A stretch of 64,000 nucleotides of DNA from Acidobacteriota bacterium. GTDB taxonomy: Bacteria; Acidobacteriota; UBA6911. The stretch lies in assembly GCA_963664705.1 (NCBI GenBank), contig OY761556.1, positions 2,784,001 to 2,848,000 on the forward strand, written 5' to 3'. Positions 42,309 through 46,802 of the stretch are shown here, piece by piece. The number at the start of each line of letters is the position of its first letter. The stretch's first letter is position 1. Position numbers and translations under genes: made by a program. The notes beneath the pieces were generated by a model. That model worked only from the letters and a program-made list of their open reading frames with translations. It made no database searches and had not been told where the DNA came from.

Positions 42309-42424
42309 CCGGGCGCCGGCAAGTGCCTATTAGAATTTTAAGTTTCAGATTCCAGATAAAATTTTTATCTCTTGATTGACTGACTCCCGGCTCCTATCTC
42401 CTGCCCGAACGATCAGGTCCCGGC

Positions 42425-42453
42425 TTGACAAAGCTCCTGGCACGACTTAACTT
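42425..42453 (+). promoter_or_regulatory. Sigma70 promoter, probably giving a leaderless transcript
   Basis: TTGACA (42425-30), 17 nt, TAACTT (42448-53). GTG start begins 7 nt after the -10 element. Confidence 0.7.
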
Positions 42454-42459
42454 CCATCT

Positions 42460-42810
42460 GTGAACATGATTCGTATGGCAAAAAGTATCGGAATGTTTTT
42501 ACTGGTCTTCCAGATACTTTTTATCTCCACCGGTTTCCATGACCTTACCTGCCATTCTGCCGCGCCGCCCGCAACAACGCCTGCGTCGCAGCGGGAATTC
42601 AGTTCCCCGAAGCTTTTGGACAACCCGGAGACGGATCACTGTAATGCCTGCTTTTTTAACAAACTGCTGAACCAGTGTGTCTTCCCTGCTTTTGAAGGGC
42701 CCTTTATCGCGGAATCATTCATACGGAGAACTCCTCTTTGCCCCGGAAGCATCGTATTCATAGCGCCCGGGAAAACAGGAAACCGCGGGCCGCCATTGCT
42801 CCTGTCTTAA
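42460..42810 (+). CDS. DUF2946-like (CruR/CutF-like) leader protein with CxxC and C-terminal RGPP
   Basis: N-terminal hydrophobic segment, HDLTCH, DHCNAC, ends NRGPPLLLS. First gene of a metal-uptake cluster. Confidence 0.78.
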   Translation: MNMIRMAKSIGMFLLVFQILFISTGFHDLTCHSAAPPATTPASQREFSSPKLLDNPETDHCNACFFNKLLNQCVFPAFEGPFIAESFIRRTPLCPGSIVFIAPGKTGNRGPPLLLS

Positions 42811-42865
42811 CCTCTTTTCAACTCGACTCACAATCTACGTGTCTTATCAGCGCTGGAGAAATGGC
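42792..42865 (+). promoter_or_regulatory. Anti-SD/SD pairing linking the RGPP stall site to the next gene
   Basis: GCCATTGCTCC (42792-42802) pairs at 10 of 11 positions with GGAGAAATGGC (42855-42865), which ends at the base before ATG 42866. Confidence 0.6.
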
Positions 42866-44224
42866 ATGAATACTGGCGTTTCCGTGGGAATATTGCTGCT
42901 TATCTTGTCAGGAATCACATGTGTCGCAGGCGAACAAAACTCCCCAGCCTCGACTTCAAATCAGACGACCTCGGCAATCGATCAGCTCCGAGCCGAGGTT
43001 GCGCAAATGAAGGCTCAATACGAAAGCCGCATCAAGGATCTGGAAACGAAACTTGAAGAGCTTCAGGCGGAGATGCTGCGCAATGCGCCGGAAACCGGGC
43101 TGCCGCCGACGCCATCTCCGGTATCTGCCTCAGTCCCGGCCAGTGCGGGCGCTATGAATCCAGCAATTTCCGTGGTCGGCAACCTGGTCGGGCGGGCTGA
43201 TTCCCAAAAGGCCTATACCGATGCGGGTCGTCGAATAGATAACAAGCTGCTCCTGCGTGAAGCCGAAATTGACATGCGCGTACCCATCGATCCATTTGCC
43301 GACGGAGTGCTGATAACATCTCTCGAGTCAGAAACCCCCGCCGATTTCTCCGTCGGGATTGAAGAGGGTTATGTGAATATCAAGAAATTTCCATTTCTTG
43401 ACCACCAGCCGCTGGGACTGAAACTCAAGGCTGGTCGATTCCGTCCTCTCTTCGGCAACATCAATGTCCTGCACACACATGACTTGCCGCAGACATTTCG
43501 CCCTCTCCCGGTGCAGGAATTCCTGGGGCCCGAGGGATTTGTTGCAGATGGACTCTCGACCAACATCTTTCTTCCAACGCCGGGGAAAAACGCCAACCTG
43601 GACTTTACCTTTGATGTCCTGAGTGGCGGAAATATCTCTGCTTCGCCAAGCACCGACAGTCGAATGGCCTATCTCGGCCACTTTCGCTATTACAGCACTT
43701 TCGCGGATACACACGATCTGCAGTTGGGATGGTCCAGCTACTTCCACCCGCAAGGAAATGGTATCCGAGAAGCCGACATTCATGACGTTGATTTCACCTA
43801 CCGCTGGAAGCCGCGGCGGATGGGTGAATGGAAATCCTTTGTTTTGGGCGGCGAGTTCATGTTTGGACGCCGCGCGTTTCCGGAAGCCTACGAAACACCG
43901 GATGTGGCAAGAGCCCTGGAGGGAAGGCAACCCGGAGAGGGAAAGCCGCTGGGTTATTACCTGTTTACGCAATGGCAGTTCAACAAGCGAACCTACGCGG
44001 GCATCCGCTGGGATAAGACCGATGTCCTTTTTGACCCGTCTTTGGAGCGGAAAAGCATCACTCCATCCTTTTCCTATTATTTCAGCGAGTTTCTGAGATT
44101 CCGTCTCAATTTTGAGCATCGCTGGAGCGACCTGCCATCGGAAAACAGACGGAATTCGGTTTTCGCTGAACTCAATTTCGTCTTTGGATCGCATCCACCC
44201 GAACCATTCTGGGTCAACAAATAG
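42866..44224 (+). CDS. Outer-membrane porin-like protein with N-terminal coiled coil, metal-uptake associated
   Basis: Signal peptide, coiled coil, Pro-rich linker, MNPAISV, EEGY, FG.IN.LHTHD, SEF.RFRL, FGSHPPEPF. Confidence 0.8.
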   Translation: MNTGVSVGILLLILSGITCVAGEQNSPASTSNQTTSAIDQLRAEVAQMKAQYESRIKDLETKLEELQAEMLRNAPETGLPPTPSPVSASVPASAGAMNPAISVVGNLVGRADSQKAYTDAGRRIDNKLLLREAEIDMRVPIDPFADGVLITSLESETPADFSVGIEEGYVNIKKFPFLDHQPLGLKLKAGRFRPLFGNINVLHTHDLPQTFRPLPVQEFLGPEGFVADGLSTNIFLPTPGKNANLDFTFDVLSGGNISASPSTDSRMAYLGHFRYYSTFADTHDLQLGWSSYFHPQGNGIREADIHDVDFTYRWKPRRMGEWKSFVLGGEFMFGRRAFPEAYETPDVARALEGRQPGEGKPLGYYLFTQWQFNKRTYAGIRWDKTDVLFDPSLERKSITPSFSYYFSEFLRFRLNFEHRWSDLPSENRRNSVFAELNFVFGSHPPEPFWVNK

Positions 44225-44243
44225 GCTGCCAAGGAGACCGCAC

Positions 44244-45284
44244 ATGAAGCTCTATAAATTTGCCTTAGGTTTACTGGCGCTTGCCCTGGCTACGCCGGGC
44301 CTGCTCGCTCAACAGAAAAAATTGCAGGTCGTGTGTACATTGCCAACGCTGAAAGCGCTGCTCCAGGAGGTCGGAGGGGACAGGATCGATGCATTTGCAT
44401 TGGCCAAAGGAGACCAGGATCCGCATTTCGTAACCCCGACTCCGGTGCTGATGCGAAAAACCCGTGAAGCGGATTTGTTCATTGAGAATGGATTCTCGCT
44501 CGAGCTTTGGGCTAACGAGGTGGCGAACGGATCCGGCAACTCAAAAATATTTCAGGGTACACCGGGACGCGTAATTGCAGGATCCGGCATTCCGGCGCTG
44601 GAAATACCGGCAGTTCTCACCCGCGAACTGGGAGATATTCATCCGCAGGGCAACCCTCACGTCTGGCTTGATCCGCTCCTGGCCAAGCTGGAAGCGGGCA
44701 ATATCTGCGAGGCCCTGAAGCGCGCGGATCCATCCAACGCGGATTTCTATGCATCGAGACTCGCTGATTTCAACAAGAGGATTGACGTTGCCCTTTTTGG
44801 TCCGGATCTGGTCAAAATACTCGGCACCCAGAAACTGACACGCTTGACCTGGAGTGGTGAACTGCAAAGCTTCCTCGAATCTAATAAGCTCAACGGCAAG
44901 CCATTGTCCGAATTAACCGGGGGTTGGATGAAACAGGCTGCCGCATTGCGCGGTATCAAAGCCGTGGAATTTCACAAAGTATGGGTCTATTTCGCGCGCG
45001 TCTTTGGAATGCAATTGATGGGCACCATCGAGGAACGTCCCGGAATTCCCCCGGGACCGCAGCATGTCCGGCAGGTGGTGGATATGGTGCGCACACAAAA
45101 AATCCCATTGATCATGGTAGACAACTTTTATGATCCAGCCCTCCCCAATAGCATTGCGCGCCAGACCGGCGCCAGTGTGGTTATTCTCCCCAACCAGGTC
45201 GAGGGGGATCCGGGAATCAAAACCTATTTTGATCTGATCGATCATCTGGTTCGTGAGTTGACCGCGGCTTTGAAAAAGAACTGA
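44244..45284 (+). CDS. Metal substrate-binding protein (ZnuA/TroA, cluster A-I)
   Basis: QDPHF, GDIHPQGNPHVWLDP, FHKVW.YF, IEERPGIPP. AAGGAG SD before ATG 44244. Confidence 0.9.
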   Translation: MKLYKFALGLLALALATPGLLAQQKKLQVVCTLPTLKALLQEVGGDRIDAFALAKGDQDPHFVTPTPVLMRKTREADLFIENGFSLELWANEVANGSGNSKIFQGTPGRVIAGSGIPALEIPAVLTRELGDIHPQGNPHVWLDPLLAKLEAGNICEALKRADPSNADFYASRLADFNKRIDVALFGPDLVKILGTQKLTRLTWSGELQSFLESNKLNGKPLSELTGGWMKQAAALRGIKAVEFHKVWVYFARVFGMQLMGTIEERPGIPPGPQHVRQVVDMVRTQKIPLIMVDNFYDPALPNSIARQTGASVVILPNQVEGDPGIKTYFDLIDHLVRELTAALKKN

Positions 45285-45287
45285 AGC

Positions 45288-45335
45288 CACGGAAGACACA
45301 AGTACATGCGGTGCCGTTTACTTGTGTCTTCCGTG
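45288..45335. repeat. Intercistronic hairpin (REP-like variant)
   Basis: Perfect 17-bp stem cacggaagacacaagta / tacttgtgtcttccgtg between the binding-protein and permease genes. Confidence 0.8.
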
Positions 45336-45350
45336 CCCACGAGGCTGAAT

Positions 45351-46802
45351 ATGCATAACCATTTGCTGCACGTGTTGATGGAACTGAAGTGGATGCTGAT
45401 TCCATTCCTCGCTTGTCTGGTCCTTTCCATTAACCACGTGTACCTGGGCATCCATGTCATAGCTCGAAAAGTGATTTTTGTGGATCTGGCTCTTGCGCAG
45501 ATTGCCGCACTGGGAGCCACCTACGCTCTGACGCTTGGCTACGATCCGAATGCCGATTCATTCAAAGTGTCCCTTTTCTCACTTGCATTTACATTTGTCG
45601 GAGCAGGCGCTTTTGCCATCGCACGGATGCGCAAGGAAAGGATCCCGCAGGAAGCCTTTATCGGAATCATCTATGCCGCCGCATCGGCGGCAGCCATCCT
45701 GATTCTGTCGAAATCAGCCAGCGGAGGCGAAGAACTCAAGCACATGCTTGTCGGGGACGTGCTCCTGGTATCGATGCCGAATGTCATCCACATGGCACTC
45801 CTGTATGGGTCGATAGGAATCTTCCACCTGATTTTTCGAAAAAAATTCCTGGCCATTTCAATGGATCCGGAAGGAGCAGAAAACTCCGGAATGAACGTCC
45901 GGTTCTGGGACATTCTCTTCTATATGTCCTTTGGACTTGTTATCACCAAATCCGTTGCGATTGTGGGCGTCCTGCTTGTTTTCTCCTACCTGGTCGTACC
46001 CGCGGTCATCGCGCATATGTGGGCGGACACCATACGCGGACGGCTGCTCCTCGGCTGGGCAATTGCCATCCTTGCAAGCACGCTTGGCATAGTCTGGTCC
46101 TTTTATGCAGACTATCCGACCGGCCCCGCGGTTGTAGTAACTCTTGGAATTTTCCTGATTGCCTCCAGCATCGCGTATTACATCGGCAACGCCGAAGCCA
46201 GGCTCCGGGCGCTAGCGGTGGTTTCCGGCCTCATTCTGTTTGGAATTATCTTTATAGGAGGGCTGGACCACTTCAAAAAAGTGGAAGCCGGGACACCGCC
46301 AGCCAAAATCGATATCGTGGACATGTTCTTGAAGGAACTGGCGGACGACAACCAGTCTACTCAATTGGATGGCGTGAAGCATCTCCAGGAAATGAATGAT
46401 TCCAGGATTGTGCCGGCGCTGGATTCGCTGCTTGTGCGCAGCACATCCGATGAGGTGGTGGAAGCGGTTGTCTCCGCAATGAGTAAACAAAAGGATCCTC
46501 GCGCCATTCCTGCCCTGCGGAAAGCAGCCGCAGGCATTTATGATTTCTTTTTAAAGCTGACTATTGCGGAAGCACAGCTGAATGTTGGCGATCCAGAGGG
46601 TTATGCTACCCTCATCAGCATCATGAAGGAAGATGATGCCGGCTATGCCCGGCATCAAGCCAGTGATTTGTTCGAAAAGCGATCCGGACGAAAGTTCGGA
46701 TACAGTCCGGACCTCCCGGTAGCCGCGAATGGTACCCCCCTGGCGCAGATGGCCGAGTGGTACTCCACAACCGGCCGTCACACAAAGCTGCCGGCAAAAT
46801 AA
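45351..46802 (+). CDS. ZnuB/ABC-3-type metal permease fused to a C-terminal HEAT-like repeat domain
   Basis: H.YLG.HV..RKVIFVDLALAQIAALG, EAFIGI.YA, GVLLVFSYLVVPA, D.PTGP. Then about 150 aa of helical repeats (DSRIVPAL, DPRAIPALRK). Confidence 0.85.
   Translation: MHNHLLHVLMELKWMLIPFLACLVLSINHVYLGIHVIARKVIFVDLALAQIAALGATYALTLGYDPNADSFKVSLFSLAFTFVGAGAFAIARMRKERIPQEAFIGIIYAAASAAAILILSKSASGGEELKHMLVGDVLLVSMPNVIHMALLYGSIGIFHLIFRKKFLAISMDPEGAENSGMNVRFWDILFYMSFGLVITKSVAIVGVLLVFSYLVVPAVIAHMWADTIRGRLLLGWAIAILASTLGIVWSFYADYPTGPAVVVTLGIFLIASSIAYYIGNAEARLRALAVVSGLILFGIIFIGGLDHFKKVEAGTPPAKIDIVDMFLKELADDNQSTQLDGVKHLQEMNDSRIVPALDSLLVRSTSDEVVEAVVSAMSKQKDPRAIPALRKAAAGIYDFFLKLTIAEAQLNVGDPEGYATLISIMKEDDAGYARHQASDLFEKRSGRKFGYSPDLPVAANGTPLAQMAEWYSTTGRHTKLPAK

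Follow-up and report, generated by a model that had tools for sequence, protein, structure and literature searches.

In Bordetella pertussis, the DUF2946 (PF11162) protein CruR (Bp2923) is reported to act through Rho termination over the 162-nt gap between cruR and bfrG, with 45 residues between its CxxC and RAPP motifs, a spacing kept within 1-2 residues in DUF2946 (PMC9426467). In vitro, CruR stalls at RAP/P; the strongest arrest, which resists EF-P, is obtained with RGPP (PMC12992588). CutF of Rhodobacter capsulatus is an exported, metal-binding leader in which stalling at a C-terminal proline motif unfolds a stem-loop that shields the Shine-Dalgarno (SD) sequence (PMC9973294); copper prolongs this stall (PMC9973294; bioRxiv 10.1101/2025.02.05.636593), and 5,334 CutF-like proteins have been catalogued (PMC9973294). 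In SecM-secA and uDF_RQH-secDF2 the stalled ribosome disrupts an SD-sequestering stem-loop and the next gene is switched on (PMC10987492). SecM and uDF_RQH monitor secretion, and the available text of that paper describes no conserved His/CxxC sensor for them. Here we analysed a predicted leader peptide of this type preceding a porin-ZnuA-ZnuB operon in a 64,000-nt stretch of Acidobacteriota DNA (lineage UBA6911; assembly GCA_963664705.1, contig OY761556.1, positions 2,784,001 to 2,848,000 of the forward strand). This whole stretch is the window, and coordinates at the locus are positions in it.

An earlier note on this DNA had described a TTGACA-17-TAACTT promoter followed by a 116-aa open reading frame (ORF) with a hydrophobic N-terminus, HDLTCH, DHCNAC and a C-terminal NRGPPLLLS. 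All of these elements were located, the last directly ahead of the stop codon. Judged from its sequence, the ORF is almost certainly a real, conserved leader of the arrest type, the arrest itself being predicted, and it very probably controls the downstream operon. The leader region contains the following features.

42425-42453, + strand: sigma-70-type promoter, TTGACA at 42425 and TAACTT at 42448 with a 17-nt spacer; predicted start site ~42460.
42460-42810, + strand: leader ORF, a predicted CruR/CutF-like arrest peptide of 116 aa from GTG 42460 or 114 aa from ATG 42466.
42487-42531, + strand: hydrophobic N-terminal segment, residues 10-24, with a 15-residue mean hydropathy of 2.27.
42538-42540, + strand: His27, shared by ≥90% of the leaders aligned.
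42640-42651, + strand: CxxC (CNAC), 44 residues ahead of the Arg of RGPP.
42784-42795, + strand: predicted RGPP arrest motif; P-site codon 42790-42792 and A-site codon 42793-42795 predicted by analogy with the CruR toeprint.
42792-42802, + strand: anti-SD arm GCCATTGCTCC, within the predicted footprint of the stalled ribosome.
42811-42840, + strand: the 30 nt that follow the leader stop codon, rich in C and poor in G (11 C, 2 G); a possible Rho loading site.
42855-42865, + strand: SD (GGAG) of the porin gene and spacer, the 3' arm of the helix, GGAGAAATGGC, ending right before ATG 42866.

Residues are numbered with GTG 42460 as codon 1 (H27, C61, R109, P111, P112); the gene caller and the protein collection give the 114-aa form that starts at ATG 42466. 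For comparison 180 porin loci were collected, of which 167 had a usable porin start (13 left out), 104 were non-redundant (63 left out) and 95 had at least 500 nt upstream (9 left out). A leader was scored when an ORF ending in R[AGS]PP lay no more than 400 nt from the porin start. Such an ORF was found at 63 of the 95 loci (RAPP 42, RGPP 10, RSPP 11), so the conservation of leader and motif with the downstream operon, on which the earlier note had made its proposal depend, was borne out. With other first residues the same ending was rare (A[AGS]PP 1/95, K[AGS]PP 0/95, any non-R residue 7/95), and among long ORFs of the own genome R[AGS]PP endings numbered 3/3215. The set of 62 leaders used below omits locus L039, whose leader is split over two frames.

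In these leaders the only invariant residues are C61, R109, P111 and P112, with H27 nearly so, at a mean identity of 17%. CxxC stands 42-46 residues before the Arg in 51 of the 62 and CxC at 44-45 residues in another 10, leaving one leader with neither; one to eight residues follow the RxPP motif in all of them. The hydropathy of the N-terminal segment, scored by hydropathy window only, had a median of 2.47 and a minimum of 1.8, and the segment is likely to be an export signal or anchor. Leaders of the CxC (often ECxC) subgroup occur at L051, L060, L062, L064, L065, L090, L095, L119, L123 and L144, and the named members include Binatia. Two leaders appear to be broken: at L039 the CxxC part and the RGPP end are in different frames, and upstream of the L058 porin an RAPL end resembling L005 is kept with no intact N-terminal part. 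The two DNA contigs that span the stretch (X1, X3) show 0 differences to it, but they are possibly the source DNA itself and hence not independent.

The leader resembles CruR in being the first gene of a metal-uptake operon, in its export-like N-terminus and in the CxxC about 45 residues (here 44) before a C-terminal RxPP; a stall in low metal and its release by metal are predicted in the same direction. Unlike CruR, it ends in RGPP, is followed by a gap of only 55 nt, carries an anti-SD under the predicted stall site and does not match PF11162; CruR controls a TonB-dependent copper transporter, whereas here a 16-strand porin and ZnuA/ZnuB-like genes follow. Searches of Pfam (at E 0.1) and NCBIfam assigned the leader to no family, and the PF11162 profile found nothing at the leader locus when run against the own genome. 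At E ≤0.1 this profile matched 7 of the 62 leader homologues (best 1.1e-4), and the nearest Atlas clusters are auto-named DUF2946 with a score of 0.96. Thus the leader, which from its sequence would work like CruR or CutF, is not filed as DUF2946, since PF11162 does not match it even though some homologues match weakly. It also has the properties used to filter CutF-like proteins (Ozturk 2023): 114-116 aa (<150), PP within the last 15 residues (4 residues follow), a likely N-terminal signal, and His27 plus CxxC as Cys/His metal motif. CutF itself differs in its CxxxC and PPP motifs, in its target, a detoxifying oxidase, and in its intergenic stem-loop, as the anti-SD here lies in the coding end; the predicted polarity is opposite to that of CutF.

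As in the RAPP/RGPP peptides, the conserved motif is found near the C-terminus of a small protein predicted to be secreted. In the survey of upstream ORFs (uORFs) by Fujiwara et al. 2025 (PMC12992588, Fig. 4B), 137 RAPP uORFs precede DUF2796 genes and at least 9 precede 'zinc-regulated' outer-membrane genes, and DUF2796 is ZrgA, a zinc-uptake gene (PMC9817125). In the main text of PMC12992588 the words zinc and 'stem-loop' have 0 occurrences each, and the zinc-linked uORFs are neither discussed nor tested there. Our literature search returned no description of an arrest leader on a ZnuA-type importer, though supplementary tables may list such leaders. The novelty that the earlier note had suggested for a secM/secA-type switch in this context is reduced by CutF, which already joins a metal leader to an SD stem-loop (PMC9973294).

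The end of the leader can pair with the SD of the porin gene. As proposed earlier, GCCATTGCTCC and GGAGAAATGGC are complementary at 10 of 11 positions; the 5' arm, however, opens with the third base of the first Pro codon and not in the last Pro codon. Dinucleotide shuffling of 42760-42850 produced a 10/11 complement 12 times in 5000, a chance level that applies to a target chosen after the fact. Five of six folding windows gave pair probabilities of 0.95-1.0 at 9 of the 11 helix positions, and the sixth (42760-42890) gave ~0.47. At this locus the SD is GGAG, the Pro codons are CCG CCA and it is the codons following them that pair; in many homologues, among the matches listed, the SD is paired directly with the Pro-Pro codons. 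In 37 of the 62 leaders the first Pro is encoded by CCT, versus 20 of 123 first-Pro codons of Pro-Pro pairs in the porin genes (p 4e-9), and 76 of 417 other leader prolines are CCT.

When the 24 nt from the Arg codon were paired with ribosome-binding sites (RBS), the own RBS gave -14.5 kcal/mol and those of other loci -12.5 (permutation p 5e-5), this locus ranking 3 of 62 for its own pair. Own-locus pairing was not significant in flanking control windows at -30, -60 and +24. When each porin cluster was represented by a single locus (41 or 23 clusters), p for the stall-site window was ≤0.0015. Blocking the footprint of a ribosome stalled at the first Pro lowered the mean cost of opening the SD from 9.7 to 7.4 kcal/mol over the 62 loci and by at least 2 kcal in 30 of them, while blocks shifted by -30, -60 and +30 did so in 4, 3 and 15. 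At this locus the cost fell from 9.0 to 4.2 kcal/mol. Synonymous recoding weakened the pairing, with this locus at percentile 0.018 and 23 of the 62 loci at or below 0.05, and GGAGG was commoner as SD with a leader (37/62) than without (8/32, p 0.002). Since independence among kin loci is incomplete, these p values overstate the significance. A stem-loop that would shield the SD within reach of a stalled ribosome is predicted and exceeds controls, but the SD is not fully freed and CCT does not covary with GGAGG. In the fold check proposed by the earlier note, the block loosened the SD and did not open it.

Three genes make up the downstream operon, in which the earlier note had recognised ZnuA/ZnuB-type functions; the PF01297 protein and the ABC-3 permease agree with this.

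42866-44224, + strand: outer-membrane porin gene, assigned from an AlphaFold model, Foldseek, hhalign and database labels.
44244-45284, + strand: ZnuA-family binding protein (PF01297) with His61, His139 and His244.
45351-46802, + strand: ABC-3 (ZnuB-like) permease fused to HEAT repeats, from Pfam/NCBIfam.

For the porin gene product Pfam gave no family and no Plug domain. Its AlphaFold model (60-sequence alignment, mean predicted local distance difference test score 79) has 16 barrel strands after an N-terminal helix and no plug, and the best Foldseek folds are the porins OmpM1, OmpF, Omp32 and OprO. Because of the 16-strand model and these matches the protein is taken as a porin; the database label TonB-dependent receptor was rejected, as such a barrel would have 22 strands and a plug domain. 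As modelled, the family labelled 'zinc-regulated TonB-dependent receptor' is thus a 16-strand porin, and we correct the label. His61, His139 and His244 of the binding protein align with histidines of its best matches, Lmb/Lbp and Synechocystis ZnuA. No ATPase gene follows the permease in 42866-46802, nor in the Vibrio copy described below, and an ABC ATPase was seen after the permease in 1 of 15 long loci inspected (L062), some of which are cut short. The relatives that have names are mostly Acidobacteriota, and the porin profile matches 116 of 401 genomes of this phylum, a tally that includes one unpublished genome.

A counterpart of the operon exists in Vibrio. In one Vibrio campbellii record (L221) each of the three genes has a homologue and their order is unchanged (porin by hhalign, 98.7%; the other two by BLASTP, 3e-27 and 2e-21). 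They are preceded by two perfect matches to a Zur-type box (L221 2863-2877 and 2897-2911) and by no leader ORF. The omr-znuAII-znuBII operon of V. parahaemolyticus (Vpa1307) likewise consists of an outer-membrane gene, a ZnuA-type gene and a permease without ATPase (PMC9817125, PMC3794297). It belongs to the Zur regulon, and when zinc is limiting its genes are reported to be induced 1034-, 543- and 283-fold (PMC9817125). In one strain its ZnuA helps the cells to grow when zinc is depleted (PMC3794297), and in another strain deletion of this gene is reported to leave growth unaffected. Because the Vibrio counterpart has Zur-like boxes and the same-labelled operon rises in zinc limitation, the analysis indirectly favours zinc as the metal and low metal as the ON state.

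No common operator emerged in the acidobacterial loci. A scan for AT-rich palindromes found no shared box before the leaders or before leader-lacking porins. The Vibrio-type Zur pattern, built after L221 had been seen, matched two sites in L221, one in L070 and none elsewhere among the 221 loci, and in the own genome it had 0-1 matches; the Zur box of Acidobacteriota may be of another form. The own genome has two Fur-family genes. Rfam models run on 40 loci gave one cobalamin riboswitch (L070) and no other match; it lies at L070 3828-4039 on the minus strand, upstream of a His-rich leader that ends in KTSPP and its porin operon, both of which run in the opposite direction.

Taken together, these data suggest the following switch. 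When metal, probably zinc, is scarce, the ribosome would stall at RGPP, as predicted from data on RGPP in other peptides, and would hold the anti-SD arm open, so that the porin-ZnuA-ZnuB operon is translated. Binding of metal to His27 and the CxxC would end the stall and let the mRNA refold over the SD; Rho-dependent termination may add to this after the ribosome has left. That the leader is a metal-sensing arrest peptide, with both stalling and metal binding predicted, is likely. On the complete model, with anti-SD output, release by metal and zinc as the ligand, we are evenly divided. Its parts join the sensor geometry and predicted polarity of CruR to the output of CutF and SecM, with the anti-SD placed in the arrest codons or a few codons after. 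Still broader, and on balance doubtful, is the claim that this is the first translational zinc arrest sensor, in which a leaderless His/CxxC peptide would replace Zur across Acidobacteriota on an ATPase-less importer, with the arrest codons themselves serving as anti-SD. The metal-sensing arrest leaders that have been tested answer to copper, according to the reports cited, and a response to zinc, if true, would extend the class to a second metal. The same import operon would then be controlled in Vibrio by a repressor that binds DNA and in Acidobacteriota by ribosome stalling. With its short gap and codon-level anti-SD, the locus would offer a compact system for the release of an RGPP stall by metal bound 44 residues from the peptidyl-transferase centre.

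Several observations weigh against this model. The strict R[AGS]PP motif is missing at 32 of the 95 loci; a few variants were seen by eye among them (L043 RAPA, L058 RAPL, L070 KTSPP) and most show nothing. Any Pro-Pro run is C-rich and hence pairs with G-rich SDs, and at 75% clustering the upstream control window also reached a median p of 0.04. The covariation of the two arms that the earlier note had proposed to look for was not found for CCT and GGAGG across the 62 loci (23/14/14/11, p 0.79), and the intergenic regions of kin do not align in the DNA alignment. The ribosome block lowered the SD opening cost by less than 1 kcal in 26 of 62 loci, and here it only about halves the cost, the first three SD bases staying 80-90% paired in a weaker local hairpin. 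Eleven of the 62 loci pair worse than their own recoded median, and the near kin L061, L087 and L097 are unremarkable under recoding. A terminating ribosome covers the same arm and gives much the same folding picture. Regarding the metal, the orthology of the V. parahaemolyticus operon is taken from label and gene order only. Of nine genes checked downstream of relatives found with the leader profile, 6 encode TonB receptors with a plug domain and 2 encode efflux OEPs; since related leaders also stand before efflux genes, polarity cannot be read from the leader.

These points leave room for other explanations. A CruR-type output, in which stalling keeps Rho away from the transcript, metal release ends transcription in the intergenic region and SD pairing is secondary, appears unlikely. 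CruR does act through Rho (PMC9426467), the SD is freed only in part in our folding, and C is enriched in the 30 nt that follow the stop, where the C-G skew averages +0.23 over the 62 leaders, compared with -0.03 for ORFs of this genome and -0.12 behind porin stops. This stretch fits Rho loading as in CruR and an anti-SD alike, because the latter needs the pyrimidine excess equally. Moreover, the gap between leader and porin is short (55 nt here, median 85.5) compared with 162 in cruR-bfrG, and the locus-specific pairing signal would be left unexplained. The same switch might instead answer to Cu, Ni/Co or Mn, or work with opposite polarity, metal prolonging the stall as reported for CutF with copper; this we consider rather unlikely. 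The CxxC is the copper motif of CruR, related leaders stand before TonB receptors and efflux OEPs as counted above, and ZnuA-family matches include Mn/Fe proteins. Zinc is supported over these by the three-His binding protein, with Lmb/Lbp and cyanobacterial ZnuA as best matches, and by the reported induction of the same-labelled Vibrio operon in zinc starvation, while an importer turned on by excess metal would be physiologically improbable.

It is very unlikely that the leader monitors secretion or redox state without sensing metal, its stall being released by Sec pulling or by a CxxC disulfide in a SecM/ApdP-like manner. All leaders have a hydrophobic N-terminal segment, and in this genome secDF, too, is preceded by a RAPP leader. 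That leader, however, is without the CxxC-44 pattern, and a His and a Cys pair conserved at a fixed distance together with a metal-import operon downstream speak against such a monitor. RxPP alone is not always arresting, its effect being context-dependent, and as a terminating ribosome also covers the arm, plain translational coupling could be considered, the helix being opened by every ribosome that passes along the leader or terminates there, without programmed arrest. We regard this as scarcely probable: R, P and P are kept at a fixed spacing to the Cys while the leaders are only ~17% identical, and RGPP is reported to be the most avoided tetrapeptide in many proteomes.

The promoter that the earlier note had placed before the leader is present. 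TGACA and TAA-TT are invariant in six aligned sequences, this locus and its five nearest kin; the consensus promoter scan, whose rule demands 4/6 in the -10, did not list it. A -35/-10 pattern lies 5-12 nt ahead of the candidate leader start at 22 of the 62 loci versus 0/62 porin starts, 0/742 internal codons and 23/3215 long ORFs of the own genome, where such an arrangement is therefore rare. Any SD-like candidate for the leader itself was seen in only 9 of the 62. Because of the promoter at this distance and the few leader SDs, the leader mRNA is probably leaderless or nearly so. About 55 nt upstream of the -35 there is a perfect 8-1-8 palindrome, AGATAAAATTTTTATCT, at 42354-42370; no second copy occurs in the genome when 2 mismatches are allowed, and an operator or a weak terminator is conceivable.

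The secDF leader mentioned above ends in RAPP, is hydrophobic, has no CxxC and precedes a fused secDF gene (G000:C1 ~4943253, minus strand; L223/L225), which suggests an ApdA/ApdP-like monitor. Two leader-lacking porins have neighbours that were noticed by eye. Upstream of the one at L033 there is a divergent gene for a putative ZupT-like transporter, and upstream of that at L012 a gene for a small His/Cys protein, presumably resembling Fe-Mo cofactor-binding domains. The C-terminal HEAT-repeat domain of the acidobacterial permease is missing from the 264-aa Vibrio permease. The genome also has a second ZnuA-family system at G000:C1 6376000-6380542 on the minus strand (L185), which comprises a divergent binding protein (E 4e-13), a TonB-type receptor, an ATPase and an ABC-3 permease.

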